This document shows positions 9,445 to 63,782 of a stretch of DNA of 64,000 bases, one piece after another. The translations under genes were made by a program, and so were the position numbers. The stretch's first letter is position 1; each line of letters begins with the position of its first letter. Under the pieces are notes generated by a model. That model saw nothing but the letters and a program-made list of their open reading frames with translations. It ran no database searches and was not told the origin of the DNA. Where the stretch lies: sequence record DRR723986_585. One strand, given 5' to 3'.

Positions 9445-9482
9445 ACTAAAATAAACTAATCAATTTTAACTATATTTGAAAT

Positions 9483-13584: not shown

Positions 13585-14373
13585 ATGCCAAAGGCACTAT
13601 TCTATTCCATCTGTATATTAATGAGCTCAAGCTCTTTTGGCCAAACCATTTTGTTGGATGAGGATTTTAGCAATGGCATTCCAAGTACATGGGCCGTGGT
13701 TGATGCTGACGGACATACACCTCACGCAAGCATGAGTCAATTCACTGCCGGTTGGATTTTTTATAATGATAGCGGTGATTCAACTGCAGCAAGTACATCT
13801 TATTACACCAATTCTACTGATCAGTCTGAAGATTACTTAATATTGCCGAAAATTAGTTTAGCAACGTTTACGAAGTTAAGTTGGAATGCCCGCTCAGTTG
13901 ATCCTTCTTTTCCAGATGGCTATCATGTGCTCGTATCAACTACAGACTCTTTAATCACCAGTTTCACTGACACACTATTAACCGTGCTAACTGAAAATTA
14001 TAATTGGAACCGAAAAAGCATCATGTTGGATACTATGGGCTTTGCAAATCAAGACGTTTTTATAGCCTTTAGAAATTTCACAACGAACGGATTTATCCTA
14101 GAATTGGATGATATTCTTGTTGAAGCCTCTGATTTTGCTGGTGATGTTGAAACAACTAAACCGTCATTTGAAATCTATCCTAACCCAGCAACTGAACACT
14201 TGAATATCAGATTTTCTGAACCTTTTAAGGCGAGCATTATTGCTATGGATGGAAAAATAATGATACAGTCAACTGAGACAATGATTAACACATCAGATTT
14301 AAGTCCGGGACAGTATATCATTCAACTTCAAACGAAATCTGAGGTACTGAATCAGATTTTAATCATAGAATAA
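13585..14373 (+). CDS. T9SS cargo with cleaved-adhesin (choice-of-anchor J)-like domain
   Basis: EDFSNGIP.TW...DADG, DYLILP, VFIAFRN, LDDI; CTD IYPNPA...LSPGQYII. Confidence 0.85.
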   Translation: MPKALFYSICILMSSSSFGQTILLDEDFSNGIPSTWAVVDADGHTPHASMSQFTAGWIFYNDSGDSTAASTSYYTNSTDQSEDYLILPKISLATFTKLSWNARSVDPSFPDGYHVLVSTTDSLITSFTDTLLTVLTENYNWNRKSIMLDTMGFANQDVFIAFRNFTTNGFILELDDILVEASDFAGDVETTKPSFEIYPNPATEHLNIRFSEPFKASIIAMDGKIMIQSTETMINTSDLSPGQYIIQLQTKSEVLNQILIIE

Positions 14374-24339: not shown

Positions 24340-25812
24340 ATGATGAAAAAGACACTGATTATATTCACTTTATTGCTGCCATTGATTGGTCAATCACAAG
24401 CAATTAGTTTTTTAAGAAGTTACGGGAACTCAGGTTATGACTACGCCTGTGATGTAAAACAGGATGTTGATTCAGGATATGTTGTGGTAGGTTCTTCGAG
24501 TAGCTTTACCCCTGATAATGGAGATGCGTATATCCTAAAGGTGGACACCCTAGGAAACCAACTATGGTCGTATAATTATGGCGGACAAGGAGCAGATTGG
24601 GCCAAGGCAGTAGAAGTTACGATTGACGAGACATACGCCCTTGCTGGATATACCAATAGTTATGGCGCCGGTGGATTCGATTTTTATTTAGTTAGAACAG
24701 ATGCGGCTGGCGTTCCAATTTGGGAAAAAACCTACGGCGGATCTGATTGGGACAGAGCATTCAACATGCAAGAAATGCCCGATAGTGGCTTTGTTTTAGT
24801 CGGTGAAAGCCATAGCTTTAATAATGGTATCAGAGCTGGATATGCAGTAAGAGTTGATAAATTTGGAGATACCTTATGGACTTTTTCTCATCCCTCATTA
24901 ACCGAAGAGTCTTTTTATAAGGATGTTGCTCTTGATGGTGACACGCTAATCATCTGTGGTGGCATAGCAGACGGAGGAATCAATACTTATGACGGCCTTA
25001 TCATTAAAATGCATGTCGATAAAACAGTGGGATGGATTCAAACTGTTGGTCAAGCCGATAACGATTACTTCAATACCGTATTTGCGGTGAATGGAGTTCA
25101 TTCATTCGCTGGAGTAACAACCACAGACTACACCAATCGTAAGGAGGATACTTGGATTTATAGACTACAAGATGACAGGACCTTTATCAATGAAGGCTCC
25201 TATCCCACTTCTAACTTCAGAGATGATGGAATTAACGATATTTATGTACGAGATTTTAACCAAGACGTCTATTATGCGGGCTATTCGGCTAGTTTCGGTT
25301 TTGGAAATGTTGATGGATTTTCTGATTTCTTCACCGGAAAATACTCATTTGGCGGCTTCAATTTAGCTTATAATAATTATGGCGAAGCTGGAGTTGATGA
25401 AGCGACAGGAATCGATTTCGCTTATGATAATGGGGTTATCATTTGTGGAAATACACAACATTATCAAACTGGAGGACACAACATCCTCTTACTAAAACTG
25501 GGGCCAACCTGGACTTATCCCGATCAATTTACAGATTTAACATTTGATGATCTAACACTTTCAGTAGAAGATTTTGAAAATGATCAAAGTACGACTTTCA
25601 ATATATATCCTAATCCTGCTGAGCAAGTGTTAAATATTGATTCAGACTTAACAATTCAATCTGTTCAAATTTTTGACCACATAGGTAAAATGGTTTATTC
25701 AGAGTCTAGCCCGGGTCAAAGCATCAATGTAAGCGATTTAAATTCAGGAGTTTATATTCTTCAGATTCAAATTGAAGGCAAAGACTACCGCAAAAAATTG
25801 ATTATAAAATAG
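24340..25812 (+). CDS. T9SS cargo with beta-propeller-type repeats
   Basis: Repeats of D.Y.LK.D..G...W...YGG...D.A; CTD IYPNPA...LNSGVYIL...KKLIIK. Confidence 0.87.
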   Translation: MMKKTLIIFTLLLPLIGQSQAISFLRSYGNSGYDYACDVKQDVDSGYVVVGSSSSFTPDNGDAYILKVDTLGNQLWSYNYGGQGADWAKAVEVTIDETYALAGYTNSYGAGGFDFYLVRTDAAGVPIWEKTYGGSDWDRAFNMQEMPDSGFVLVGESHSFNNGIRAGYAVRVDKFGDTLWTFSHPSLTEESFYKDVALDGDTLIICGGIADGGINTYDGLIIKMHVDKTVGWIQTVGQADNDYFNTVFAVNGVHSFAGVTTTDYTNRKEDTWIYRLQDDRTFINEGSYPTSNFRDDGINDIYVRDFNQDVYYAGYSASFGFGNVDGFSDFFTGKYSFGGFNLAYNNYGEAGVDEATGIDFAYDNGVIICGNTQHYQTGGHNILLLKLGPTWTYPDQFTDLTFDDLTLSVEDFENDQSTTFNIYPNPAEQVLNIDSDLTIQSVQIFDHIGKMVYSESSPGQSINVSDLNSGVYILQIQIEGKDYRKKLIIK

Positions 25813-38507: not shown

Positions 38508-40412
38508 TTGGAATCAGCTAAAGACATACTAAAGCAATATTGGGGACACGAATCATTTCGTAAGAAACAAGACAAAATCATAGATGCTGTTTTGAATGGT
38601 CAAGATGTTTTAGCCCTTTTACCTACGGGCGGCGGAAAATCAATCTGTTACCAAGTTCCAGGAATGTTATTACCAGGTACCTGCTTGGTCATTTCGCCAC
38701 TTATTGCCTTAATGCAAGACCAGGTCAACCAATTAAACAAAAAAGGCATTCAAGCTAAGGCGCTAACTTCTACTCTAACGAAAAGACAAGAGGACATATT
38801 ATTGGATAATGTCATTTACGGAGGTATAAAATTCCTTTACGTATCTCCTGAGAGATTAAAAAACAGGTTGTTTCTGACGAGATTCGAAAAAATGAAGATC
38901 AATTTAATTGCAGTTGATGAAGCACATTGTATATCACAATGGGGTTATGATTTTAGGCCTTCATATTTAGAAATAAACAAGCTAAGAGAAATTAAACCAA
39001 ACACCCCAATAATTGCACTCACGGCTACTGCAACCATAGACGTTGTAGACGATATTCAAACGAAACTTGAATTTAAATCGAAAAACCTTATTCAGGATAG
39101 TTTTCTGAGAGAAAACGTTCATTATAAAGTTGAACAGGTAACTAATAAATTCAATAGACTTTTAGAATTACTCAAGAATCAAAAAGGATCTGGAATAATT
39201 TATTGCACTACCAGAAAGGAGGTTAAAAACCTCACAGTATCCTTGATAAAAAAAGGGCTATCTGTTGATTTTTATCACGGCGGTTTAGCCCATGATATTA
39301 GAAAACAACGTCAAGAAGATTGGGTTGCAAACAAAACACAATGGATCGTTTGTACCAACGCATTTGGAATGGGTATTGACAAACCTGACGTGAGAAATGT
39401 AATTCATTACACAATCCCAGAAACCATTGAAGCCTATTTTCAAGAAGCAGGTAGAGCGGGAAGAGATCAGCAACTTGCTAACACCACACTACTTTACGAG
39501 CCGATTGATATTAAAAATCTAAAAGAGAAAATCGATAAAAAATATCCTTCAATTGAGTTCATTAAAACTGTATATCATGCCCTCGGCAACTTTTTTCAAT
39601 TAGCTATCGGTTCTGGAAATGGCGAACAATTTGAAATGGATACGCTTGGTTTTTGTGATCGATTCAACTTTGATTTAATCGAAACATTTAATGCGCTTAA
39701 ATTTCTCGAAATCTGTGGGTTCATTACACTTTCTGAAAACATTAGTAGATCAAGTCAATTGCAGATAATCGTTAGCAACCAAGAACTATACAATCAACAA
39801 GTTAAAAATAAAGATGTTGATAATATCATTCAGTTCATTTGCAGAACACAAATGGGAGTTTTTGAAAATGCAGTGAACGTGAATGAACATAAAATTGCGA
39901 CTCACTTAAACATGAATCTTAAACGAGTTGAAGAAGTATTGAACTTCTTAAATGAATTAAACATTATTGAATACAGTCCTAAACTTAACGGTAGTTATAT
40001 CACTTATCAAACAGAAAGACTTGATTTATCAAACATTTCAATTAACCCGGAACTTTATCACAATCGAAAAAAAATAGCTCAGAAAAAGCTAGACGCAATG
40101 GTCAATTTCTTAGCAAATGAAAGTTGTAGTCAAGCCTATTTATTGAACTACTTTAGTGAAAAATCTGACTATCAATGTGGAACATGTACCTATTGTTTAA
40201 GTCAAGTCAGGCAAACTCAACTAACGGCAAATGAACTCAAAAAACTCTTGAAAAGTCAGTTTCAGTCTGTAGACAGAATAAACATTGAGGAAATAATTGC
40301 TCAAAACAAAACATATTCCAAGGAAAACCTACTAGAAGCTATCAGAGTATTAGCAGACAATGGCTTTATCGCTTTAGACGAACTTGGAAAGTCGGTGATT
40401 AAAAATTTCTAG
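38508..40412 (+). CDS. RecQ-family helicase (no HRDC; long insert before the Zn domain)
   Basis: PTGGGKS, DEAHCISQWGYDFRP, TATA, AFGMGIDKPDVR, QEAGRAGRD, C...CGTCTYC; TTG start. Confidence 0.93.
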   Translation: MESAKDILKQYWGHESFRKKQDKIIDAVLNGQDVLALLPTGGGKSICYQVPGMLLPGTCLVISPLIALMQDQVNQLNKKGIQAKALTSTLTKRQEDILLDNVIYGGIKFLYVSPERLKNRLFLTRFEKMKINLIAVDEAHCISQWGYDFRPSYLEINKLREIKPNTPIIALTATATIDVVDDIQTKLEFKSKNLIQDSFLRENVHYKVEQVTNKFNRLLELLKNQKGSGIIYCTTRKEVKNLTVSLIKKGLSVDFYHGGLAHDIRKQRQEDWVANKTQWIVCTNAFGMGIDKPDVRNVIHYTIPETIEAYFQEAGRAGRDQQLANTTLLYEPIDIKNLKEKIDKKYPSIEFIKTVYHALGNFFQLAIGSGNGEQFEMDTLGFCDRFNFDLIETFNALKFLEICGFITLSENISRSSQLQIIVSNQELYNQQVKNKDVDNIIQFICRTQMGVFENAVNVNEHKIATHLNMNLKRVEEVLNFLNELNIIEYSPKLNGSYITYQTERLDLSNISINPELYHNRKKIAQKKLDAMVNFLANESCSQAYLLNYFSEKSDYQCGTCTYCLSQVRQTQLTANELKKLLKSQFQSVDRINIEEIIAQNKTYSKENLLEAIRVLADNGFIALDELGKSVIKNF

Positions 40413-41869
40413 TTTTTTGAAGGCGTCTCTTCAATCACTTTCACCAAAAATTTCCAAAACTTTTGAACTGATTTTATGTTAACTTTTTCATCTGGTGAAT
40501 GCGGATGTCTGATGGTAGGACCAAAAGATATCATATCACATTGAGGCAAGTGTTTACCTAAAATACCACATTCTAAACCAGCATGACATGCAGCAACCTT
40601 AGGCTCCTCGTTAAACATGCTCACATAATTCGATTTTAACACTTCTAAGATTCTTGAATTAGGATTTGGTTCCCAGCCAGGATAATCTCCTGCTTGCACA
40701 ACACTTGCACCAATATTTTCATAATGTAAACGCAATGCAGTGGCCACATCATCTTTACCTGACTCAACCATTGAGCGCTGCAAACTTTGAGTAATGAACT
40801 CTCCATCTTTTATGATCACTTTTGCTAAAGAAGTTGAAGTTTCAACTAATCCTTCTATTTTATCGCTCATTTTCCAAACACCGTTTGGCGTAGCATATAT
40901 TGCAGCAATGATTTTAGAATTATCAGATTTAGAGAGCATAAGCTGTTTAGCTTCTGTGGATTCGCTCAACTTGAATACTGCGTTAGGCTCCACTGTTGAG
41001 TATTCTGACTGAATCTCCTCTGTCAATTTGCCAAAAGAAGCAACTACTTTAGCTTCATCAGCTGAGTCAAAAGCAATAAATCCTTGACTTTCTCTAGGAA
41101 TGGCATTTCTTAAACTCCCTCCTTCTAACTCTACAATCCGTAGATCTGTTAAAGCATTCAATCCAGCAATTATCCTATTCATTACTAGATTAGCGTTTGC
41201 TCTTCCAGTATTGATATCCATCCCTGAATGACCACCTTTTAAGCCTTTCACAGAAATTGAAAACACTTTATAGTTGTTAGGAATTGACTCAGTTTGATAG
41301 GACATTTTGGTATTTGTATCTATTCCGCCTGCACATCCAACCGAAAACTCATCATCATCCTCTGTATCTAAATTCAATAAGATTTTACCTCCTAATAATG
41401 AACCGTCTAATTCTTTAGCACCAGTCATTCCTGTTTCTTCATCAATAGTAAATAACGCTTCTAGAGCTGGATGTTGAATATCATTTGAAGATAACAAACT
41501 CATAGCTGCTGCAACTCCCATTCCATTATCTGCACCTAAGGTTGTGCCATCTGCCTTTACCCATTCACCGTCTATCATAGACCGAATTCCTTCTTTGTCA
41601 AAATCAAATTGTGTATCCGAATTCTTTTGATGAACCATATCAATGTGACTTTGAAGAATAACCGTTTCTCTATTCTCCATTCCTGGTGATGCCGGTTTTT
41701 TAATGATCACATTACCTATCTTGTCTTCCAACACTTCTAGTCCTAAAGACTTACCAAAATCAATCATGAACTGTCTTATACGCTCTTCCTTTTTAGAAGG
41801 ACGCGGGACTGCGTTCAAATCTTCAAAATGGTTCCAAATAACTTTAGGCTCTAATTCTCTTACGCTCAT
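40409..41869 (-). CDS. pepD: Aminoacyl-histidine dipeptidase (M20C)
   Basis: PRPSKKE, QSHIDMV, TTLGADNG, DEETGM, NLDTED, GGHSG, HAGLECG, HSPDE. Confidence 0.95.
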   Translation of the reverse strand: MSVRELEPKVIWNHFEDLNAVPRPSKKEERIRQFMIDFGKSLGLEVLEDKIGNVIIKKPASPGMENRETVILQSHIDMVHQKNSDTQFDFDKEGIRSMIDGEWVKADGTTLGADNGMGVAAAMSLLSSNDIQHPALEALFTIDEETGMTGAKELDGSLLGGKILLNLDTEDDDEFSVGCAGGIDTNTKMSYQTESIPNNYKVFSISVKGLKGGHSGMDINTGRANANLVMNRIIAGLNALTDLRIVELEGGSLRNAIPRESQGFIAFDSADEAKVVASFGKLTEEIQSEYSTVEPNAVFKLSESTEAKQLMLSKSDNSKIIAAIYATPNGVWKMSDKIEGLVETSTSLAKVIIKDGEFITQSLQRSMVESGKDDVATALRLHYENIGASVVQAGDYPGWEPNPNSRILEVLKSNYVSMFNEEPKVAACHAGLECGILGKHLPQCDMISFGPTIRHPHSPDEKVNIKSVQKFWKFLVKVIEETPSKN

Positions 41870-42162
41870 TTTTTCTGTTTTGACTTAAAAAGTGTCGTGA
41901 ATTTACTGCTTTTACCTTAAAATTCTGAACAAGGAGCCCATATTATTCAAAAATCAATGAAAGAGTAAATAAATTAACGGTCCGTTATTACATCTAGAAT
42001 ATTGGTACAAAGATTATTACCGAATAATCAAAAAGCAACTGTTGTTTCGCCGAGATATTTTTTGTTTAATCAAACAACTTTCTTTCAAAATTTGGCGTCT
42101 TCTTAACATTGTGTTAACTTTAGAAACACTATTATTTAAAATTGATTAATCCAACTCGTTAA

Positions 42163-43335
42163 ATGATTAGTAAGAAAATCTACTCACGCATACTACTGGT
42201 ATTTATACTTGTAATATTCAACAATCAGCTTGTATATAGTCAATATTGTCTGGCAGTTGGACCATCATCTACAGCGGATTCAAACATAGAATTTGTTTCA
42301 ATTTCCGGTGAAAGCGGTAGTTCTATTAATCATAACGGATGTCCGGGAGTAAGTGGTTTAAATGATTTAACCAGTACAGAAAGTGTTGATTTACTGCAAG
42401 GGAATTCTTATTCTCTCACGATACAATTTGGTACTTGTGGTGGTAATTATAGTGGAGCTGGTGAAGCTTGGATAGATTTTAATCAAAATGATGTTTTTGA
42501 TGCGAGCGAATCATTAGGCACATGGTCAGGATTACCTCCTACGGCAGTTTCAGTATTTAATTTTACAGTACCCGGTGCTACACCTGACGGACAGGCTAGA
42601 TTACGAATCATTCAACAAGAAGGGACTACTCTTCCTCTAGATCCTTGCGCCAATTTTACTTGGGGTTCTGCTACAGATTTCTTGGTGAATTTTGGACCAC
42701 CCATTGATTGCTCTGCCTATATAGGAGATGACATGTCTGACCCTCGAATAGTCAGCACCATTCCATATACAGAATCTCACGATAACGACTTTTGTTATTC
42801 TAATGTATCTGAAGTTTATGTTTCACCAGATGTATTCTATCGAATAATTCCTTCGCAATTAGGTATAACTGAATTCAATGTATCTCTTTGCGGATCTTCA
42901 TTTGATACTTATTTAGAAGTTTTAGATACTGACACTAACGTTGTTGCAAATAATGATGATTATGGCCCTTGCGCGCCTCAATCAGAATTAAGTTTTAACT
43001 CAGGCAACCATGACACTCTTTTTATTGTAGTTCAAGGGTGGTCAAATGAACAAGGAAACTATACGATTGAAATTAATAATGGTGAATTCACTAGCGTTAT
43101 CACTGACGAGTTTGAATATCAGTTATTCCCAAATCCTGTAAATGATCTCTTAAGTGTTGCAGGTATTACCGGATATACTGAGATCCAATTCATAAGTTTA
43201 AATGGACAGATTGCATTAACGGATAAGATTGATCAAGATGCTAGTTTAGATTTATCTTATTTAGAAAGTGGAATTTACTTAGTCAGGCTTACCAATAATG
43301 GAAAAGTCTCTCATCAAAAAATTACTGTCTTATGA
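42163..43335 (+). CDS. T9SS cargo with GEVED-like and PPC-like domains
   Basis: AWIDFNQN..FD..E, RLRI, DPC...WGSATDF; SLCGSSFDTYL...NDD; CTD LFPNPV...LESGIYLV. Confidence 0.85.
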   Translation: MISKKIYSRILLVFILVIFNNQLVYSQYCLAVGPSSTADSNIEFVSISGESGSSINHNGCPGVSGLNDLTSTESVDLLQGNSYSLTIQFGTCGGNYSGAGEAWIDFNQNDVFDASESLGTWSGLPPTAVSVFNFTVPGATPDGQARLRIIQQEGTTLPLDPCANFTWGSATDFLVNFGPPIDCSAYIGDDMSDPRIVSTIPYTESHDNDFCYSNVSEVYVSPDVFYRIIPSQLGITEFNVSLCGSSFDTYLEVLDTDTNVVANNDDYGPCAPQSELSFNSGNHDTLFIVVQGWSNEQGNYTIEINNGEFTSVITDEFEYQLFPNPVNDLLSVAGITGYTEIQFISLNGQIALTDKIDQDASLDLSYLESGIYLVRLTNNGKVSHQKITVL

Positions 43336-44558
43336 AGTTAGCCGGATTTTTATCTTTAATAAGTTTACTTTTCATTGCTGATTCTTATGCTGTACAAGTT
43401 TGGAATCAGAAAGCAAACTTTGGTGGAATTGCTCGACACAGAACAACATCATTTACTATCGGTAACAAAGGTTATATGGGCCTTGGTCACTATAACTCTG
43501 GCCCTTCAGGAAATGTACATCTTGAGGATTTCTGGGAATATGACCCAGCTTCGAACACCTGGACTCAAAAAGCTGATTTTGGTGGTGGACCAAGATATCA
43601 TGCCGTTGGAGTTGGTTACGGTTCTAAAGCTTATGTTGGAACTGGAAGATCAATTGGAGGAATATTAAATACAGATTGGTGGGAATTTGATCCCATAGCG
43701 AATACATGGTCGACTAAACCAAGTTTCCCTGGTAACCAATGCAGAGGAGCAGTAGCTTTTCTTTTAGAGGATTTGATTTTTGTAGGAACAGGTCAAACAA
43801 CTTCTGGATTTACAAGCGATTTTTATGCCTACGACATTACGAATGATCAATGGCTGGGTGGAGTATCAACATTTCCAGGTTCACCAAGAACATCAGCAGT
43901 TGCCTTTACTATAGGCGATAAAGCATATGTTGGAACAGGAGGAACGGGTTGTGGAACAACTGACTTTTACGAATATAAATTAAGCAACAACACTTGGGTG
44001 CAACGGGCTAATGTCGGAACCTTAATCAGACAAGAAGCCGTTGGATTTGCTGTAAATGGGAAGGGATATATTGGAACGGGAGATAATTGCTCCAGTGGAA
44101 CAAATTATAAAGACATGTGGGAATATGATCCTGCTACTGATACATGGACAGAAATAGAAGAATTTGGTGGATCGGCTAGACGATACTTGGACGTCTTTGT
44201 AATTGGAAACAAGGCATTTTGTGGACTTGGTACGAGTGGCGTGAATTATGCCGATTTATGGGAGTTTGACCAAACGCTTTCGGTAATTTCTCGAAATAAT
44301 AATTTGCTTGAATTGCAGAACTTCCCTAACCCAGTCGCCCAATATACTACGTTCATTCTTAACGATCTACCAACAGGGGTTGATTATGCTGACTTGAGCT
44401 TAGAAATTTATAATATCACTGGCCAAATGGTTTTCAATTCGATTTTCGATTCAAATGAATTAGTGTTTAATAGAACTAATGAAGCTGCTGGAATGTATTT
44501 CTATTCACTTACCTATGAAGAACAGCATGTGAAAACCGGTAAATTGATCTTAGAATAA
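43332..44558 (+). CDS. Kelch beta-propeller T9SS cargo 1
   Basis: Six Kelch blades (F.IG.KGY.G.G...WEYDP..NTW); CTD FPNPV...GMYFY. Confidence 0.9.
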   Translation: MKLAGFLSLISLLFIADSYAVQVWNQKANFGGIARHRTTSFTIGNKGYMGLGHYNSGPSGNVHLEDFWEYDPASNTWTQKADFGGGPRYHAVGVGYGSKAYVGTGRSIGGILNTDWWEFDPIANTWSTKPSFPGNQCRGAVAFLLEDLIFVGTGQTTSGFTSDFYAYDITNDQWLGGVSTFPGSPRTSAVAFTIGDKAYVGTGGTGCGTTDFYEYKLSNNTWVQRANVGTLIRQEAVGFAVNGKGYIGTGDNCSSGTNYKDMWEYDPATDTWTEIEEFGGSARRYLDVFVIGNKAFCGLGTSGVNYADLWEFDQTLSVISRNNNLLELQNFPNPVAQYTTFILNDLPTGVDYADLSLEIYNITGQMVFNSIFDSNELVFNRTNEAAGMYFYSLTYEEQHVKTGKLILE

Positions 44559-45712
44559 TGAGATTATTATTCTTTTCAATATCTATTCTTTTCGTTTCGT
44601 TTATTGGTCATTCGGCCCATATATGGAATCAAAAAGCATCTATTCCAGCTGAAGGCCGGCATAGAACTACAGGTTTCTCAATTGGGAACAAAGGATATAT
44701 TGGTCTGGGACATTATAATTCAGGTCCCATGGGCAATGTAGCTAAAGCCGATATTTGGGAATATAGCCCTGCGGATGATTCATGGACTCAAAAAGCTGAT
44801 TATGGTGGAGGAGCAACATACGGCGCAACAGCTTTTACAATTGGTAATAGAGCCTACGTTGGTGCCCACGTCTATGGCTCTCAAGAATTTTACGAATTTA
44901 ACCCACAATCTAATACTTGGTCTATAATAGCACCTTGCCCAGGAGGAAGTTCAGATCACCCATCATTTACTGTAAATGACAGAGGCTATTTCATTGGCAC
45001 AAACGCCTTATATGAATATGAACCGACTTTTGACACTTGGATAACTCATGGTTCAACTCCCGTTTCTGTTTGGTCATGGGACAAAGCTTTCAGCGTTGAC
45101 GGGAAAGGTTACTTACTGACAGATAACGGCTTTTTTGAATACAAACCTAGCACGGATAATTGGGCAATGAGAGCTCAATTTCCAGGAGAAGCAGTTGGAG
45201 GTTGGTCATGTTTTGGAATCAACGGAAAAGGATATGTTGCCACAGGATATATCAGCTTCCTTAACCCTACTTCTCGCCAAACTTGGCAATATGACCCTCA
45301 AGTAAATGAATGGCATCAATTAGCTGATCTACCAGGGTCAACCAGAAGATTTTCTGCTTCGTTTAAAATAGGAAACAAAGGCTATCTTGGAACAGGAACC
45401 AATGGAACTAACTTGAAAGATTTTTGGGAATTTGATGAAACTTTAGTCGCTGAGGAAAATTCTCATCAAGTAAATCTAACAGTATTCCCTAACCCAACCG
45501 TTGATGACCTATTTATACAGTTTTCTGATTTTATTTTCACGGATATTATAACAATCGATATTTATAATCAATCTGGTGAAATCGTTTTACAACAAAACCT
45601 TAACCAGGCTAACAATAAAATTGAATTGAAACATCTATCAAAAGGCATTTATTTTTACAATATTTATGCTTCAAATGAAGATTTGAAGCAAGGGAAAATT
45701 ATTTTGAATTAA
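44558..45712 (+). CDS. Kelch beta-propeller T9SS cargo 2
   Basis: Six blades (3 and 4 shortened); CTD VFPNPT...LSKGIYFY. Confidence 0.9.
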   Translation: MRLLFFSISILFVSFIGHSAHIWNQKASIPAEGRHRTTGFSIGNKGYIGLGHYNSGPMGNVAKADIWEYSPADDSWTQKADYGGGATYGATAFTIGNRAYVGAHVYGSQEFYEFNPQSNTWSIIAPCPGGSSDHPSFTVNDRGYFIGTNALYEYEPTFDTWITHGSTPVSVWSWDKAFSVDGKGYLLTDNGFFEYKPSTDNWAMRAQFPGEAVGGWSCFGINGKGYVATGYISFLNPTSRQTWQYDPQVNEWHQLADLPGSTRRFSASFKIGNKGYLGTGTNGTNLKDFWEFDETLVAEENSHQVNLTVFPNPTVDDLFIQFSDFIFTDIITIDIYNQSGEIVLQQNLNQANNKIELKHLSKGIYFYNIYASNEDLKQGKIILN

Positions 45713-45714
45713 TT

Positions 45715-46959
45715 ATGAAAAAAAACTTACTCCTAATTTTTATTCTTAGTTTTTCACTTTTCGAAGCTGCATATGGTCAAAACATGTGGACTGAGAAAGC
45801 TTCTTTTGGAGGCGAAAAACGAACCCGAGCGGTTTCATTTGCAATTGGCGATTACGGATATGTTGGATGCGGTGAAGACACCGTTGAAATGACTCACAAT
45901 GATTTATGGAGATACGATCCTGTTGCAGATGTTTGGTCTCAAATGATGACTTTACCTGGCTCAACTAGAAGAAATGCTACCGGTGTAGCTATTGGCGATA
46001 AAGGCTATATTGGATTAGGTGCGGATTCATCTGTATCTTCAGCAGGTTCAATTTTAGATGACTGGTGGGAATATGACCCAAATACCAACGCTTGGACTCA
46101 AAAAGCCAATTATCCAGGAGGAATTGATGTGAATGGAAGTTCAGGTTTTCAAGGCGTTTATTTCGCTACAGCCTTTGCTATAGATACCAAAGGATATGTT
46201 TGCGGGGGTAAAATGGGATCAGATTTTTACGGAACAGATCTTTGGGAATATAATCCTGGCTCAGATTCATGGACTAGAATGGCTGATTTTCCAGGAGGAG
46301 ATCGATATCAGATGTCAAGTTTTAGTGTAGAAGGAATGGGATACGCTGGAATGGGTATTGACCATGATTTGTTCAGAAAAGATTGGTGGAGATATGATCC
46401 AAACACAGATAGTTGGACACAAACCACCTCACTACCTGGATCTGAGAGAGCAGCTGCTAGTTCTTTCGTATTAGGTCAAAGAGGGTTTATTGTTTTTGGA
46501 TCTGATGGTGGATACAAAGACGAACTTTGGCAATATAATCCATTTACGGAAGCTTGGAATATAAAAGCGAACTTTCCACCTAGCGGAAGAAAAAACGGAA
46601 TTGCTTTCGCTATTGGCGACAAAGGTTACGCCGGAACGGGTTCAGCAGCAACGGGTAAAAAACGAAGCTTTTTCGAGTATGCTCCACTCCATCCAATTGG
46701 ATTTAGCGAAAACTCAACAGCTGACATTAGCGTTTATCCAAACCCAATAGTTGATCAAGCACAAATTATTATTAACGGCACAGATGCGGCATTATCTTAT
46801 GAAATTTGGGATTTGACAGGAAAACTGATCACCAAAGAGTCTCTATTCTCTAATACACTATTTGTCAATCGTAATGACTTCAATTCAGGAACCTACCTGA
46901 TAATAATTAAAGATGCTGACGCCAACACAATTAAAACAGATAAATTGATCTTTATATGA
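45715..46959 (+). CDS. Kelch beta-propeller T9SS cargo 3
   Basis: Six blades; CTD VYPNPI...FNSGTYLI. Confidence 0.9.
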   Translation: MKKNLLLIFILSFSLFEAAYGQNMWTEKASFGGEKRTRAVSFAIGDYGYVGCGEDTVEMTHNDLWRYDPVADVWSQMMTLPGSTRRNATGVAIGDKGYIGLGADSSVSSAGSILDDWWEYDPNTNAWTQKANYPGGIDVNGSSGFQGVYFATAFAIDTKGYVCGGKMGSDFYGTDLWEYNPGSDSWTRMADFPGGDRYQMSSFSVEGMGYAGMGIDHDLFRKDWWRYDPNTDSWTQTTSLPGSERAAASSFVLGQRGFIVFGSDGGYKDELWQYNPFTEAWNIKANFPPSGRKNGIAFAIGDKGYAGTGSAATGKKRSFFEYAPLHPIGFSENSTADISVYPNPIVDQAQIIINGTDAALSYEIWDLTGKLITKESLFSNTLFVNRNDFNSGTYLIIIKDADANTIKTDKLIFI

Positions 46960-48173
46960 GAATAGCATTCATAACTTTATTTCTTGCTACAGGAATTTCA
47001 TCTTTTAGTCAAGATGCTTGGATTCAAAGAGATTCAATTAAAGGACCAACTCGTGCAAACGCTGCTTCTTTCGTGATAGATAATGATGACGGATATATAG
47101 TTTCAGGATATGACGGTTTTGGTAAAAAAAGATCTGCTGTTTCTTATGATGTTGATCAAGATGATTGGGATTCTGAAACTTCATTAGGAGGCGTAACTGG
47201 AGATGGCTTGAACAGAACCTCTGCTATAGGCTTTAATGCTAATAATTATGGTTTCGTAGGCCTTGGAGAAGGTGAAGGATTCGTTTTCCAAGATTTATGG
47301 AAGTATGATAAACAAACTGATGCCTGGACCCAAGTAGCAGATTTTATTGGTCCTGCTCGTACGCAGGCGGTTAGCTTTGCAATTGATGGTTTTGGTTATG
47401 TGGGAACCGGAAAAGGGGCAGATTTATCAACACTTTACAACGATTTTTACAAATATGATGAAGCCTTAAACACATGGACCCAAGTTGCTGACTTTCCTGG
47501 AACAGGAAGAATGGATGCGGTAGGTACAACATGTGGAGCTCAAGGTTATGTTGGTTTCGGATATGATGGCACCAGCTACACGTCTGACTTCTATCAATAT
47601 TTTCCCTTAACAGATACTTGGAATCAAATCGCAAGTTTCCCCGGTACTGCGCGAATCAATGCGGTAGCATTCGGCGTTTTTCCTCAATTATTTATTGCTA
47701 CTGGTGATGATGGGTTTAATTACCTAAATGACACTTGGGAGTATAACGTGTTTGGCAACGTTTGGTCGCAAAAGGCAGATTTTATAGGTGATCCTAGATC
47801 AGGAGCGAGTGCTTTTGTGATTGAAAATCGACCTTTCGTAGGTGGTGGATTCGGATCAGGAGTTTATTATGATGATTTCTATGAATACACCTTTACTTTG
47901 TCAACAGAGGAGCTTTCAATTGTTGATGTAGACATATTTCCAAATCCAACAAGTGATTATTTAACAGTTCGTTTATCAGAAAACCTCAAACATCCAAGTT
48001 TCAGATTGTTCTCTAGTGATGGAAAAGAAGTTATAATAGAATCGAATTTGCAAAATTCTTATCAAGATATTACGCTAAATTTGTCCGACATTAAATCTGG
48101 AATTTATTATTTAGCAATTTATGAAGACGGACAACTTGTTCAAAACAAATCAGTTTCGGTACTTTCTAATTAG
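46956..48173 (+). CDS. Kelch beta-propeller T9SS cargo 4
   Basis: Six blades; CTD IFPNPT...IKSGIYYL. Confidence 0.9.
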   Translation: MRIAFITLFLATGISSFSQDAWIQRDSIKGPTRANAASFVIDNDDGYIVSGYDGFGKKRSAVSYDVDQDDWDSETSLGGVTGDGLNRTSAIGFNANNYGFVGLGEGEGFVFQDLWKYDKQTDAWTQVADFIGPARTQAVSFAIDGFGYVGTGKGADLSTLYNDFYKYDEALNTWTQVADFPGTGRMDAVGTTCGAQGYVGFGYDGTSYTSDFYQYFPLTDTWNQIASFPGTARINAVAFGVFPQLFIATGDDGFNYLNDTWEYNVFGNVWSQKADFIGDPRSGASAFVIENRPFVGGGFGSGVYYDDFYEYTFTLSTEELSIVDVDIFPNPTSDYLTVRLSENLKHPSFRLFSSDGKEVIIESNLQNSYQDITLNLSDIKSGIYYLAIYEDGQLVQNKSVSVLSN

Positions 48174-48564
48174 TGCAGTGATTGCTGCGTTGATCTTGAG
48201 TTGTGACTCAAACTCTGCAGAAAATGAAAAATCTGAAACCTCTTCAATCGTAGACACTTCTGTAGAAGTTGATACGAGTAAATCTGAATTAGAATCTGAC
48301 TATCTTGAGAACGAAAACTATTCTTATCAAACGATATTGAATGATTCTATTGGATGGGGCTACCAAATTTTAAAAGGTAATAAAGTCTATATCAATCAGC
48401 CTCATATCCCAGCCATTTCAGGAAACAATGGATTTAAATCTGAAGAAGATGCAGCAAAAACGGCAGCATTCGCAGTATACAAAATCGAAAATGGAATCGT
48501 GCCTCCTACCCTTTCGAAATCAGAACTTGATAGTTTAGGGGTAATAGATATAAAAGAAGAATAA
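48121..48564 (+). CDS. DUF4907-like lipoprotein
   Basis: Lipobox ILSC; GWGYQI......INQPHIPAISGN.GF.SEEDA.K.A......I..G..PPTLS..EL. Confidence 0.82.
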   Translation: MKTDNLFKTNQFRYFLISAVIAALILSCDSNSAENEKSETSSIVDTSVEVDTSKSELESDYLENENYSYQTILNDSIGWGYQILKGNKVYINQPHIPAISGNNGFKSEEDAAKTAAFAVYKIENGIVPPTLSKSELDSLGVIDIKEE

Positions 48565-48599
48565 GATTAGATATCTTTGTAAAAGTTTATTCGATTTAA

Positions 48600-49940
48600 A
48601 TGAAAATTATAATTACCGGTGGAGGAGCTGTAGGCTACCACATTGCAAAAATGATGGCCAGTGAGGCTCACGATATTTATCTTATAGATGAAAACAAAGA
48701 CCGGCTAAATTATGTTCAATCTCACTTAGATGTATTCGCTATTCATGGAGACGGAAAATCCATCTCTGTATTGAAAGAAGCGAAAATTGAACAGTGTGAT
48801 TTATTAATTGCTGTAACGGCTAATGAAGAGACCAATTTATTGGTATCTATTTTGGCTAAAAAATTTGGAGCAAAACGCACGATTGCAAGAATCAACAACC
48901 TAGAACTACAGCAACAAAGCAATATCGAAATATTTGAATCTTTAGGAATTGACACGATTATCTCACCGGTTCAACTGGCAGCTGAGGAAATCATCAGATT
49001 AGTCGATAATTCTGTATTCACAGATGATCATGAGTTTGAAGATGGAAAATTGACTGTTTTTGGAATTTCCATTGATGATTCAAGTCCACTTAAGAACAAA
49101 ACGATTTCAGAATCCGCCTATCTAAACCCGGATTTATCTTTTAAACCAATTGCATTGCATAGAAAAGAGGAAACAATTATTGTTAACTCTGAAACAACCA
49201 TTAAGGAAGATGATATTGTTTATTTTATCTCAAACGAAGAAGCAATAGATTCTGTCATCAATATTTGCGGAAAGGAGTGTTTTGAAATTCGAAACATAAT
49301 GATCCTCGGAGGAAGCAGCATTGGAGTACTCGCGGCTCAACTCCTTGAAAATCAATATAAAGTTACATTAATTGAAAAAGACAGAGAACTCGCAGAAGAA
49401 ATCGCCGGTAAACTAAAAAATACGCTCGTTTTAAATATAGACGGAAGGGACGTTTCAGCCATTGAAGAAGAAGGTTTGGCAGATATGGATGCCTTTATTG
49501 CAGTTACTGGCGATTCTGAATCCAATATCATGTCCTCATTGGTTGCTAAGAACCATAATGTTAAGAAAACTATCGCGAGGGTCGAGAATATTGACTATAT
49601 CCATCTTTCTCAAAACATAGGAATTGACACCTTAATTAATAAAAAAATCATTGCTGCCAGCAATATTTTCAAGTATGTGAGAAAAGGTGATGTTACCGCA
49701 ATTGCCAATCTACATGGAGTAGATGCTGAGATTATAGAATTCGTTGTAAAACCTAATTCTAAAGTAACGAAGAAACGAATTCGAGACCTTAAATTCCCTA
49801 AAACTGCCAATATTTCGGGTGTTGTTAGAAACAATGTTGGATTCATTCCTTTCGGAGGGTTCCAATTAGAGGCTGGAGACCGTGCTGTTGTTTTTTCATT
49901 GACAGAATCTATTCATAAAATAGAGAAATTCTTTGCTTAG
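48600..49940 (+). CDS. trkA: Trk potassium uptake NAD-binding subunit
   Basis: Two RCK_N/RCK_C pairs (GGGAVG; GGSSIG); -7 box TATCTTTG at 48572-48579. Confidence 0.95.
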   Translation: MKIIITGGGAVGYHIAKMMASEAHDIYLIDENKDRLNYVQSHLDVFAIHGDGKSISVLKEAKIEQCDLLIAVTANEETNLLVSILAKKFGAKRTIARINNLELQQQSNIEIFESLGIDTIISPVQLAAEEIIRLVDNSVFTDDHEFEDGKLTVFGISIDDSSPLKNKTISESAYLNPDLSFKPIALHRKEETIIVNSETTIKEDDIVYFISNEEAIDSVINICGKECFEIRNIMILGGSSIGVLAAQLLENQYKVTLIEKDRELAEEIAGKLKNTLVLNIDGRDVSAIEEEGLADMDAFIAVTGDSESNIMSSLVAKNHNVKKTIARVENIDYIHLSQNIGIDTLINKKIIAASNIFKYVRKGDVTAIANLHGVDAEIIEFVVKPNSKVTKKRIRDLKFPKTANISGVVRNNVGFIPFGGFQLEAGDRAVVFSLTESIHKIEKFFA

Positions 49941-51407: not shown

Positions 51408-51470
51408 CGACTTTAGGAGACTTTTCAACATTGATCAATCCTTGTGCTTATTCTCGTAGCTTTGTTCTAA

Positions 51471-53561
51471 GTGCAAAGTCCTCAAGAAATATTAAAAAGT
51501 GTATTCGGTTACAACGAGTTTCGTCCATTTCAACAAGAAATAATTGAACATGCTTTAGCCAATCAAGACGGTCTTGCGATTATGCCTACGGGTGGGGGAA
51601 AGTCTATCTGTTTTCAAATTCCAGCGATATTAAAACCTGACGTTACCTTAGTTATTTCACCATTGATTTCTCTCATGAAAGACCAAGTGGATGCATTAAG
51701 GGCAAATGGTGTTGAAACCGCATTTTACAACAGCTCTATTTCGGACGCAGAAAAGCAGGAGATTTATTCAAAGGCCGTTAATAGTCAACTGAAATTGCTA
51801 TATCTTTCACCAGAAACACTCGTTGGAGGAATAGATTGGTTGCAACGAATTCCAATTAGTATGATTGCGATTGATGAAGCGCACTGCGTTTCAATGTGGG
51901 GACACGATTTTAGACCTGAGTATCAGCAAATTGGGCAACTAAGAAAGCATTTTAGCAATGTTCCATTCATGGCTTTTACGGCAACTGCCGATAAGATTAC
52001 TCGGTCTGACATCATTGAAAAACTTGCTTTAGAGCATCCTTCAACATTCATCTCTTCATTTGACAGACCAAATTTATCTCTGGCCGTAAGATCTCAGATA
52101 CCGAAAAAACAAAAAGAGAAAGAAATCGTCTCATTTATTAAGCAAAGAGTTGATGAAGCTGGAATTATCTATTGTTTGAGCAGAAAAGAAACCGAATCAT
52201 GGTCTAATTTCCTCAACTCAGCAGGAATAAATAGTCGGTATTATCACGCAGGGTTATCGTCACAAGAAAGAGACGCAATTCAAGATGGATTTATTAATGA
52301 CCAGTACCAAGTAATATGTGCTACCATTGCTTTCGGGATGGGGATAGACAAATCTAATGTGCGCTGGGTAATCCACAATAATTTGCCTAAAAATATTGAA
52401 GGATACTATCAGGAGATTGGAAGAGCTGGCAGGGATGGAATGCCAAGTGACACTATTCTTTACTATAACTATAGAGATGTTGTTTTATTGAATGATTTCG
52501 TACAAGACAGCGAATTTAAGGACGTTTATCATGAAAAGATAAACCGGATGCTTAAGTATGCAGAAGCAAGTGCCTGTAGACGAAAGATTTTACTGGCTTA
52601 TTTTGGAGAACATTTAACGGAAGATTGCGGAAATTGTGACATCTGCAACGATCCTCCTGCATTTATTGATGGCAAAATTATAGCACAAAAAGCGATTTCT
52701 GCGTCCCTTAGATCAAAAGAACAATTGGGTATCAACCTAATGATCAATGTTTTAAGAGGAGCAAAAACTATTGAAATTTTTGAAAAAAATCTTGACAAAA
52801 TAAAGACCTATGGTGCCGGATCGGAATATTCTTTCAAGCAATGGCAGCATTTTATCAATCATTTAATCAATCAAGGAGTGTTTGAAATTGCTTATGATGA
52901 AAACCTTCATCTCAAAGTGTCGGATTTAGGCAAGGCCATTGTGGAATCTAAACAATCCATCCAGTTGACAGAATTCTCTGAAAAAACTACTAAATCAACG
53001 AAAAAGAAAACCTCAGACAAAGCCGGAGATAATGAAGTTCTTTCTAAACTTAAAGCATGGCGTAAAGAAATTGCAGCAAAAAATAAGGTGCCAGCATATG
53101 TCATTTTTCATGACGCTACACTCAATCAATTAGCACAAGACTTGCCACTCAGCATTAATGATTTAGCCGATATTCAGGGATTCGGAAAGGTGAAGATTGA
53201 TCGGTTTGGATCTGATGTATTGGGCATTATTAAAAACTCCTCGTCCAAAATATCAACTTATGAAAAAACGCTACTTCTGCATGAAAAGGGCTTGAATTTA
53301 GAGCAAATTGCAAGTGAACGGGGAATCAGTCCTCAAACTGTAATGAATCATTTGATTAAGCTTTTTGAAGAAGGAAAACCGGTCAATTTGTATCGATTTG
53401 TAACAGAGTTTGAAGTTCAACAAATCAAAACCATCAGAAAAAAGCTTGGAAACACATTTCAACTCAAACCAATATTTGATGGACTTTCAGGAGAAATTGA
53501 TTATGGAAAAATTAATGCTGCTATAGCAATTCTAGAGAAACAGAAAAAACAAATTAACTAG
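51471..53561 (+). CDS. recQ: DNA helicase RecQ (helicase, Zn/RQC, HRDC, C-terminal HTH)
   Basis: PTGGGKS, DEAHCVSMWGHDFRP, YYQEIGRAGRDG, CRR...CGNCDIC, VPAYVIFHDATL; GTG start. Confidence 0.95.
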   Translation: MQSPQEILKSVFGYNEFRPFQQEIIEHALANQDGLAIMPTGGGKSICFQIPAILKPDVTLVISPLISLMKDQVDALRANGVETAFYNSSISDAEKQEIYSKAVNSQLKLLYLSPETLVGGIDWLQRIPISMIAIDEAHCVSMWGHDFRPEYQQIGQLRKHFSNVPFMAFTATADKITRSDIIEKLALEHPSTFISSFDRPNLSLAVRSQIPKKQKEKEIVSFIKQRVDEAGIIYCLSRKETESWSNFLNSAGINSRYYHAGLSSQERDAIQDGFINDQYQVICATIAFGMGIDKSNVRWVIHNNLPKNIEGYYQEIGRAGRDGMPSDTILYYNYRDVVLLNDFVQDSEFKDVYHEKINRMLKYAEASACRRKILLAYFGEHLTEDCGNCDICNDPPAFIDGKIIAQKAISASLRSKEQLGINLMINVLRGAKTIEIFEKNLDKIKTYGAGSEYSFKQWQHFINHLINQGVFEIAYDENLHLKVSDLGKAIVESKQSIQLTEFSEKTTKSTKKKTSDKAGDNEVLSKLKAWRKEIAAKNKVPAYVIFHDATLNQLAQDLPLSINDLADIQGFGKVKIDRFGSDVLGIIKNSSSKISTYEKTLLLHEKGLNLEQIASERGISPQTVMNHLIKLFEEGKPVNLYRFVTEFEVQQIKTIRKKLGNTFQLKPIFDGLSGEIDYGKINAAIAILEKQKKQIN

Positions 53562-62702: not shown

Positions 62703-63782
62703 ATGAAAAGAAATTTACAAATTTTAGTGGTTGCGGGATTATTATCCGGAACGACTTTTGCCCAAAAAAATGCGGAATATGCTCCAGTGAATCACAGCGA
62801 GTTTGCCGCTAACACAGTACATGAAACTACTGACAGAGCATTATGGGATGTTCAATTAAATGTTGACCCAACTACAGTTGCAGCTGCTTTAGCAGGATGC
62901 TTCTGGGATGGAACTCAATTTTGGGTAGCACAATGGAATAGTGATTCAATTTACACATTAGACGCAACAGGAGCAGTAACTGACGACTTCGTAATTGCCG
63001 GTGTTTCTGGTGCTAGAAGTTTCACTTCTGACGGTACCAGCTTGTATATCGGAAGTGCAACAACGGCCATTTGGCAAATAGACCCAGTTGCAAAAACCCT
63101 TACTTCAACAATTAATACTTCAGGTTTAAATTGTAGATACCTTACATACGACCCTACTCTAGATGGAGGTAATGGCGGTTTTTGGACAGGTCAATATGGT
63201 GATGACATCACATCTGTAACCATGAGCGGTGCTACTATCAGCACTTTGCCTGCTACTACGCACGGGTTATCTGGTGTATATGGAATGGCTTATGATGATT
63301 ATACATTCGGAGGTCCTTATTTATGGGCTTTTGATCAAAGTACAACATCTATTGCTGACCTTGTTCAATTAGATATGACTGGTACACCAACTGGAAATAT
63401 TTATGATACACAAACTGATTTCGCTGGTGGATTAGCTGGAGGATTGTGGTTTGGAACTTTTGGAGGACAAGCTGCTTCAATTGGTGGAATTAGCCAAGGA
63501 ACCTCTTTGTTCGTATATGAAAGAACACAACCTGCTGGTTTGTCTGAAAATCCAGAAATTGATTTCACTGTATTTCCTAACCCTGTTGAAGAAACAATGA
63601 CTTTAGCGATTAACGCTGAATCAATTAATGAAGTAACTATCTACACATTAGATGGTAAAGTTTTATTAAACAGCACTTCGAAAGTGAAAACTTTTGACGT
63701 AAGTGATTACACTGCTGGTGTTTATATTGTTGAAGTAAAAACTGATAAAGGCATTGCTTCTCAAAAATTCACAAAAAAATAG
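62703..63782 (+). CDS. T9SS cargo with beta-propeller-like repeats
   Basis: Repeats WDGTQFW / SDGTSLY / YDPTLDG..GGFW / YDDYT.GGPYLW; CTD VFPNPV...GVYIV...QKFTKK. Confidence 0.85.
   Translation: MKRNLQILVVAGLLSGTTFAQKNAEYAPVNHSEFAANTVHETTDRALWDVQLNVDPTTVAAALAGCFWDGTQFWVAQWNSDSIYTLDATGAVTDDFVIAGVSGARSFTSDGTSLYIGSATTAIWQIDPVAKTLTSTINTSGLNCRYLTYDPTLDGGNGGFWTGQYGDDITSVTMSGATISTLPATTHGLSGVYGMAYDDYTFGGPYLWAFDQSTTSIADLVQLDMTGTPTGNIYDTQTDFAGGLAGGLWFGTFGGQAASIGGISQGTSLFVYERTQPAGLSENPEIDFTVFPNPVEETMTLAINAESINEVTIYTLDGKVLLNSTSKVKTFDVSDYTAGVYIVEVKTDKGIASQKFTKK

Follow-up and report, generated by a model that had tools for sequence, protein, structure and literature searches.

A conserved Kelch-DUF4907 gene pair of Bacteroidota and a candidate envelope module built around it

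INTRODUCTION

Why would a bacterium encode four secreted β-propellers of one kind in a row and close the row with a small lipoprotein of the DUF4907 family? The question is raised by a gene cluster at positions 42163-48564 of DRR723986_585, a stretch of 64,000 nucleotides (nt) that was analyzed at its full length and is called the window here; all positions given for it refer to that whole stretch. Six open reading frames (ORFs) run in the same direction on the + strand and encode, in order, a protein with a GEVED domain, four Kelch propeller proteins, and a DUF4907 protein (Table 1). The closest named relatives are Crocinitomicaceae. The first five proteins end in the C-terminal sorting domain (CTD) of cargos of the type IX secretion system (T9SS). 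Such cargos, together with surface lipoproteins, shape the attachment and feeding of Bacteroidota and their interaction with particles, algae, and hosts, and we know of no role for most of the T9SS cargos that lack an enzyme domain.

An initial annotation of the cluster, made from its sequence, pictured a co-expressed and diversified panel of surface proteins that bind or modify ligands, with the lipoprotein as their dedicated partner or anchor. The comparisons presented here lead us to lean, tentatively and with rather less than even confidence, toward another reading. The cluster would be a conserved envelope module, in which an old core of a Kelch gene and a DUF4907 gene has grown into a fixed set of subunits, and the DUF4907 protein would escort, dock, or cap the propellers from the periplasmic side.

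RESULTS

Kelch and DUF4907 genes are linked across Bacteroidota

A profile of 28 DUF4907 relatives was used to fetch 40 loci from a genome collection. All ORFs of at least 70 amino acids (aa) in these loci were scanned with our own hidden Markov models (HMMs) for the propeller, the CTD, and DUF4907, and the neighbors were checked by Pfam. A Kelch ORF adjoins the DUF4907 gene on the same strand in 28 of the 40 loci, lying upstream of it in 27 and downstream in one (L036); the count includes a locus reduced to a 120-aa Kelch remnant (L011). At one further locus (L032), a Kelch gene with a CTD lies one gene off on the other strand, and another (L030) is cut by a contig end. The remaining 10 have other neighbors, namely, a Peptidase_M2 gene in four and, once each, a divergent CTD protein, an FAD oxidase, a thiolase, an EPSP synthase, MarC, and a TPR protein. 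The association also holds from the side of the propellers: of the 67 Kelch ORFs in 597,604 bases, 66 belong to uninterrupted runs that reach DUF4907, one lies one gene off, and the rest of the flanks contained no others. In 24 of the 26 fetched loci for which the distance was measured, the stop of the Kelch gene overlaps the start of DUF4907 or lies no more than 26 nt from it.

Carriers of named order belong to the Flavobacteriales, Chitinophagales, Saprospirales, Marinilabiliales, and Bacteroidales. When plasmids were searched by tblastn, one more record came up, a 13-kb plasmid of Hymenobacter monticola (Cytophagales; L041, NZ_CP094540.1), on which a Kelch gene with a CTD comes after the gene of a DUF4907 lipoprotein (294-1896). 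Here the order of the pair is reversed, and relaxase and MobC genes lie beside it; the pair may move as a unit. The initial annotation had counted a lack of such linkage in other genomes as a refutation of its reading; the adjacency on this plasmid and in 28 of 40 loci, fetched with a pattern from the subfamily of the window protein, shows no such lack. The Kelch-DUF4907 linkage is real and old.

Conceivably, DUF4907 has no direct functional tie to the propellers and is a small envelope lipoprotein of general use that happens to be encoded in the same transcription unit or neighborhood as the Kelch genes. Adjacency across five named orders and on a plasmid, overlapping stop and start codons, and the lack of any Kelch gene elsewhere in about 0.6 Mb of flanks are not what such a protein would lead one to expect, even though the loci with other neighbors, the absence of fusions in our searches, and a promoter-like box inside the window cluster (see below) are compatible with it. 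We regard this explanation as quite unlikely.

A partner reserved for Kelch proteins alone is not supported, as DUF4907 also follows a lipoprotein peptidase of the M2 (ACE-like) family in four loci (L014, 306-2605; L019, 8140-10411; L026, 8389-10417; L037, 658-2932). The DUF4907 genes linked to these peptidases form one clade, with a Shimodaira-Hasegawa-like approximate likelihood ratio test (SH-aLRT) support of 93, and the two peptidases that were read, in L019 and L037, have the lipoprotein N terminus C-K-N-E-S.

Some loci have further features of their own. In Chitinophagaceae (L016, 3554-8558; L017, 2467-10369; L018, 935-3924; L023, 2960-8159), a response regulator gene lies directly upstream of the Kelch-DUF4907 pair; it is of the LuxR type or, in L023, has a LytTR domain. 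A histidine kinase gene is found near the pair in L016, L017, and L023, in the last case downstream of it. At L040, one of the 28 linked loci, the DUF4907 gene (9772-10233) is split over three reading frames, which reflects either assembly errors or a pseudogene.

Export of the propellers and the likely side of DUF4907

All five of the larger proteins of the window cluster exceed the cutoffs for the type A CTD, with 34 to 46 bits against 23 for TIGR04183 and 30.6 to 50.8 bits against 27 for the Pfam model (PF18962); the four Kelch proteins by themselves span the same ranges. Since these proteins also begin with hydrophobic N termini, judged by eye to be Sec signal peptides, all five are predicted to be exported to the surface or the medium. 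Among the 67 Kelch ORFs of the sampled loci, 58 carry a CTD. Three of those without one (L015, L038, and L039) are instead lipoproteins, whose mature N termini read C-E-K-D-D, C-N-E-D-E, and C-K-D-E-E. The sections of PMC5080379 consulted give C-X-K-(D/E)2-X, SDDDD, and SDDFE as signals that send lipoproteins to the surface, and they describe the signal in general as two or more acidic residues that come after a polar residue or Lys just past Cys+1. The three Kelch motifs fit these signals as stated there. With a CTD in most propellers and an export signal in three that lack one, the propeller appears to be sent to the surface under either route, T9SS or lipoprotein export.

The DUF4907 protein presents a different picture. 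The product of gene 6 matches PF16250 over residues 75-137 with 72.5 bits against a cutoff of 25 (E, 2.4e-20). Its lipobox ends in Cys28 (after ...AALILS) and is preceded by no alternative in-frame ATG; an acidic/polar linker of about 40 aa follows, and then the conserved C-terminal domain of about 70 aa. An AlphaFold2 model gives this domain three strands and then two helices, at a predicted local distance difference test score of about 92 to 98, and gives the linker low confidence. The family counts 3095 clusters that match the profile of 28 relatives at an E value of ≤0.001. A sequence search of the PDB returned SPIN as the lone match, which we rejected as chance (E = 0.17), and a fold search of solved structures, with a query that included the signal peptide and linker, returned nothing at an E value of ≤0.001. 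The ESM Atlas returned DUF4907 clusters alone.

Among the 188 DUF4907 representatives with an initial Met, a lipobox-like Cys was recognized in 175, and just 21 of these 175 show two consecutive acidic residues at positions +2 to +6. The window protein, which reads C-D-S-N-S-A after the lipobox, lacks the surface export signal of Bacteroidota. Several members (P0053, P0154, P0057/58, and that of L038) have N termini that are not of the lipoprotein type at all and resemble signal peptidase I substrates or membrane anchors. Because the export signal is mostly missing and some members are not lipoproteins, DUF4907 probably faces the periplasm. This makes a periplasmic location likelier than the anchoring role for which the initial annotation had allowed.

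A small gene that is tightly coupled to the gene of a secreted protein and has a probably periplasmic product invites comparison with effector-immunity pairs. The propeller would then harm competitors or bind an envelope component, and DUF4907 would shield the producer; the occurrence of the pair alone on a small plasmid, with relaxase and MobC genes, would suit such a role. Yet no toxin domain was recognized, PADLOC gave no matches, and DUF4907 is highly conserved rather than hypervariable. A single DUF4907 protein would, moreover, have to serve up to four propellers, and the chromosomal location of the cluster, with the dipeptidase gene on one side and trkA on the other, does not change across Crocinitomix genomes. 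These points make an antagonist with a protective partner highly improbable.

Array evolution and paralogue specialization

The four propellers of the window are only 28 to 42% identical to each other, and the question is whether this divergence reflects a varying panel, as the initial annotation had proposed, or separate old lineages. We built a tree of 63 propeller domains; L001 was left out because it hardly differs from the window, as were four rows in which the best HMM match spanned less than 200 positions of the profile. With the array positions counted from DUF4907 (-1 being the propeller gene that adjoins it), each position has a clade of its own. The clade of position -4 holds 6 rows (SH-aLRT, 96), the proper clade of position -3 holds 10 rows (100), that of position -2 holds 18 rows (100), and that of position -1 in multi-Kelch arrays holds 18 rows (99). 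Laying the position labels on the tree takes 3 changes, the minimum possible, against a mean of 31.2 for shuffled labels. At the columns where all four window paralogues differ, orthologues from other genera are still 37 to 52% identical, and the paralogue-specific insertions show 44 to 69% identity among orthologues (6, 10, 15, and 16 rows compared per position). Arrays with four, three, two, and one Kelch genes occur at 6, 7, 6, and 10 loci, respectively, the two-Kelch form being that of Crocinitomix catalasitica ATCC 23190 (L009). As each position forms its own clade and the paralogue-specific residues are kept among orthologues, the array reads as a fixed set of specialized subunits and not as a fast-varying panel.

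A closer comparison is offered by L001, a 10,491-nt contig of a metagenome-assembled genome that aligns to the window without gaps at 98.9% identity. Between the two, the Kelch genes differ in 33 synonymous and 16 nonsynonymous codons and the neighboring genes trkA, trkH, and recQ differ in 51 and 5. This indicates that the Kelch genes are under purifying selection that is looser than that on trkA, trkH, and recQ, as is common for surface proteins.

These observations bear on the explanation closest to the initial annotation, in which the Kelch proteins are a diversified panel for surface binding or modification and DUF4907, as a lipoprotein exposed on the surface, is their anchor or partner outside the cell. 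The T9SS CTDs of all four propellers, the conserved linkage to DUF4907, and the raised share of nonsynonymous changes in the Kelch genes would all suit it, and the long acidic linker of DUF4907 could be a spacer or a variant export signal. Against this stand the descent of each paralogue in an orthologous lineage that is conserved down to its specific residues, which would make any panel a fixed one, and the rarity of the acidic pair in DUF4907 lipoproteins, its absence from the window protein, and the existence of members that are not lipoproteins. We consider this explanation doubtful and a surface anchor less likely than a periplasmic escort role for DUF4907.

One record that was encountered in these comparisons, L005, is titled Arenicella sp. 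and comes from a gammaproteobacterial bin. It holds the full cluster of the Crocinitomicaceae type together with the trkA-trkH-recQ synteny and is probably a binning error rather than a case of gene transfer.

Domain content of the propellers

Several Kelch models exceed their cutoffs in each of genes 2 to 5 (e.g., Kelch_3 with 40.5 to 73.4 bits against 22), and six repeats per propeller are apparent in alignments of the paralogues and also as DNA repeats about 141 to 159 nt apart. The description of all four as proteins with a CTD and six repeats, the predicted blades, thus stands, with their signal peptides being a by-eye assignment. The initial annotation had also remarked that most blades keep an Arg at a set position. 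This is so for 19 of the 24 blades read from the alignment, with 6, 2, 5, and 6 in Kelch 1 to 4, respectively, and a rough pattern count agreed except for two misplaced matches; the statement does not extend to Kelch 2, the most degenerate propeller, in which just 2 of 6 blades have the Arg and the loops are shortened. This per-blade Arg is probably part of the generic Kelch motif and would then be uninformative on the ligand.

A more restricted feature is a GG..G.GL.R loop in the second blade of Kelch 4 (47187-47216), which is nearly invariant in the position -1 propellers of multi-Kelch arrays and absent from the single-Kelch partners and from the other array positions. It was considered as a general determinant of DUF4907 binding and rejected since all single-Kelch partners lack it; it may be an inter-propeller contact.

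Are the propellers enzymes? The initial annotation had found no recognizable catalytic domain, and our searches agree, with no characterized enzyme family matched. One could nevertheless suppose that the Kelch proteins are secreted enzymes, either sugar mutarotases like NanM or others that modify carbohydrates, which act on an extracellular substrate with DUF4907 as an accessory. In favor of this, models of NanM, YjhT, and the permuted mutarotases give weak partial matches (E, 1e-5 to 1e-20), and in two loci (L002 and L003) a gene for a secreted esterase-like protein precedes the cluster. These matches, however, amount to 23 to 71 bits against cutoffs of 416, 256, and 243 (NF010730, TIGR03547, and TIGR03548, respectively), extend over one blade at a time, and arise from the repeat common to both. 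Among sequences with a solved structure, the closest are designed and KLHL/Keap1 Kelch propellers (E, 1e-17 to 1e-7), which are not enzymes, and the residues that are invariant among 20 position -1 orthologues occupy repeating scaffold positions. A catalytic role accordingly appears very unlikely.

The GEVED protein

The GEVED domain (PF20009) of gene 1 is secure, with 53.1 bits against a cutoff of 24.4 (E, 5.8e-14; residues 102-176), as is its sorting domain (Por_Secre_tail in Pfam, 43.4 bits and E, 4.3e-11; TIGR04183, E, 1.6e-11). The initial annotation had called it a GEVED/PPC protein. The second half of this name is weakly founded, the match to PPC (PF04151) being 14.9 bits against a cutoff of 25.9 (E = 0.051), and for the middle domain the ESM Atlas hinted at a PPC/GBD-like sandwich, with scores no higher than 0.86. 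Orthologues of gene 1 immediately precede the array in the window and in all nine of the fetched loci that have the position -3 clade.

The sections of PMC10952558 consulted state that GEVED was first defined in fibrillar adhesins, where it occurs alongside ligand-binding tips. Repeats resembling the YadA head form an N-terminal extension of the Kelch protein of L018, and L017 has an additional neighboring protein with YadA_head and Peptidase_S74 domains. The GEVED domain and these YadA-head features lend the system an adhesin flavor.

In two relatives the GEVED gene is itself preceded by a gene for an esterase-like protein (Abhydrolase_2/Esterase_PHB with a CTD; L002, 2787-3983, and L003, 2275-3387). 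A CTD gene of similar size, found by our own CTD HMM, is at the same place in L004 (2768-3883); the Pfam identity holds for L002 and L003 alone. The window has no esterase-like gene before its GEVED gene.

Gene layout and transcription signals

The six co-directional genes reported in the initial annotation are borne out by the ORF coordinates (Table 1), as are their junctions, which are, in order, ATGA, TAATG, TAA-TT-ATG (a 2-nt gap), ATGA, and a 53-nt overlap. Such a layout is tight and has the look of an operon.

Table 1. Features of the Kelch-DUF4907 cluster in the window (signal peptides judged by eye; blades predicted from repeats)
Feature	Position	Strand	Length	Content
Upstream intergenic region	41870..42162	+	293 nt	Between divergent dipeptidase gene and gene 1
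Gene 1	42163..43335	+	390 aa	Signal peptide, GEVED, β-sandwich-like middle domain, T9SS type A CTD
Kelch 1 (gene 2, position -4 counted from DUF4907)	43332..44558	+	408 aa	Signal peptide, six blades, T9SS CTD
Kelch 2 (gene 3, position -3)	44558..45712	+	384 aa	T9SS CTD
Kelch 3 (gene 4, position -2)	45715..46959	+	414 aa	Signal peptide, six blades, T9SS CTD
Kelch 4 (gene 5, position -1, adjoins DUF4907)	46956..48173	+	405 aa	T9SS CTD
Gene 6, DUF4907 lipoprotein	48121..48564	+	147 aa	Lipobox Cys28
-7-like box TAAATTTG	48076..48083	+		TAnnTTTG; within Kelch 4, 37 nt before DUF4907 ATG
-7-like box TATCTTTG	48572..48579	+		TAnnTTTG; 20 nt before trkA start

A scan for terminators gave 4 terminator-like sites against 5.1 expected from shuffles. 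The earlier statement that the cluster has no internal terminator thus holds in that there is no excess, with the reservation that one weak site on the + strand (47353-47370) lies within gene 5. The promoter of the cluster is presumably in the upstream intergenic region, from which all six genes would be co-transcribed. The + strand of that region has no exact TAnnTTTG box, and its sigma-70-like matches are generic and not above those of shuffles.

Elsewhere in the window, TAnnTTTG is found at most 80 nt upstream of 15 of 54 genes, compared with 3.2% of random 80-nt windows. It is often just 4 to 20 nt ahead of the start codon (e.g., 48572-48579, 51457-51464, and 9471-9478), and the motif is depleted across the window as a whole (56 observed against about 84 expected). 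This pattern fits a -7 promoter element of the Bacteroidota type with very short leaders. The box before trkA, TATCTTTG, probably marks the downstream end of the transcription unit of the cluster, with trkA transcription starting afresh there. The box TAAATTTG, inside gene 5 and ahead of DUF4907, may be either an internal promoter peculiar to this lineage or a match by chance. At other loci a box before DUF4907 is found in 5 of 39 cases, against a background of 8%, and an internal promoter was rejected on this count as a conserved feature.

The cluster is flanked by a divergent dipeptidase gene on one side and by trkA-trkH-recQ on the other, and its dipeptidase-to-trkA placement is constant across Crocinitomix genomes. 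RecQ-family helicase genes are present on both sides, at 38508-40412 and 51471-53561; the latter exceeds the RecQ equivalog cutoff of 640 bits, and the former is under it with 507 bits. The composition is unremarkable, and an Rfam scan of 41500-49000 gave no matches at an E value of ≤0.1. The window also provides a T9SS context, with a GldN-like gene (8038-8934) and three further CTD proteins (13585-14373, 24340-25812, and 62703-63782), one of which has a Cleaved_Adhesin domain.

DISCUSSION

The findings can be brought together in a scheme that starts from an old core of two genes, one for a Kelch β-propeller bound for the cell surface and one for a small DUF4907 protein. In the lineage of the window this core would have expanded by the addition of the GEVED protein and by the growth of the propellers to four specialized, non-catalytic, six-bladed forms. 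The five CTD proteins would leave through the T9SS to the cell surface or the medium, where they most likely act as binders in the manner of adhesins or lectins, possibly within one hetero-assembly. The DUF4907 protein, as an outer-membrane lipoprotein most likely staying on the periplasmic side, would act on the propeller before or during its export, escorting, docking, or capping it as a dedicated factor. A bolder version of this scheme would recognize in Kelch plus DUF4907 a hitherto unrecognized envelope module of Bacteroidota with a dedicated periplasmic escort or cap for propellers exported either by the T9SS or by lipoprotein flipping and, in the four propellers and GEVED protein of Crocinitomicaceae, a hetero-assembly that forms a T9SS-dependent organelle for surface binding. 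We hold this version to be unlikely.

Several points weigh against a module with a periplasmic escort. The pattern used for fetching was derived from the subfamily of the window protein itself, so the rate of linkage is not that of all 3095 DUF4907 clusters, and the sampled loci do not include the contexts of the DUF4907 genes of Bacteroides and Parabacteroides. Even within the sample, 10 of 40 DUF4907 genes have other neighbors, four of them a lipoprotein M2 peptidase. No fusion of Kelch with DUF4907 was found, which is weak evidence; the best 150 of the 3095 profile matches are all 82 to 181 aa long. The putative co-transcription of all six genes has to reckon with the box TAAATTTG ahead of DUF4907. 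As for the side of the membrane, the lipobox was detected with a simple pattern of our own, the export signal rule is drawn, in the sections of PMC5080379 consulted, from three species outside the Crocinitomicaceae, and the acidic linker after the Cys of DUF4907 could be a variant export signal.

Its retention beside Kelch genes in five named orders and on a plasmid provides a first functional context for DUF4907, a family of about 3,100 clusters at 50% identity on which (as DUF4907 or PF16250) we found no literature. Our literature searches linking Kelch proteins to the T9SS or to Bacteroidetes likewise gave nothing relevant, as did those for Crocinitomicaceae with type IX secretion. The pair is also accessible in strains that can be cultured, among them Crocinitomix catalasitica ATCC 23190, C. 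algicola (L012), and Roseimarinus sediminis (L038). A question to be asked of such strains is whether a dedicated periplasmic partner is required by some surface proteins regardless of the route by which these are exported.

Comparisons with known systems help to define what is distinctive here. The GEVED domain of gene 1 (53.1 bits) is shared with the fibrillar adhesins of the CshA type, as described in the sections of PMC10952558 consulted. Gene 1 differs from these in having no NR2 match and no stalk repeats and in being a short T9SS cargo of 390 aa. With NanM and YjhT the Kelch proteins have in common six Kelch repeats, here the predicted blades, in a protein located outside the cytoplasm and partial model matches; they differ in scoring far under the family cutoffs and in carrying a CTD, and there are no sialic acid genes near the window cluster. 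The best matches among solved structures, the KLHL/Keap1-type and designed SAKe propellers, are non-catalytic binding propellers. Unlike the KLHL/Keap1 type, those of the window are bacterial and secreted and have no BTB or BACK domains; the similarity is confined to the repeat scaffold.

Among T9SS type A cargos (TIGR04183/PF18962), to which five of the six proteins are assigned by sorting domains above the cutoffs, we found no described set in the literature with the same layout or with a dedicated DUF4907 partner; the cargos of the window are predicted ones. The nearest parallel may lie in cargo-specific accessory genes of the T9SS, exemplified by the SprF/PorP-like proteins encoded beside SprB-type cargos. 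Both cases present a small accessory gene that is kept beside the gene of the secreted protein that it would serve. However, SprF-type proteins are outer-membrane barrels tied to type B CTDs, whereas DUF4907 consists of a lipid anchor and a soluble domain of some 70 aa, and it differs from them further in accompanying lipoprotein-exported Kelch proteins and M2 peptidases as well.

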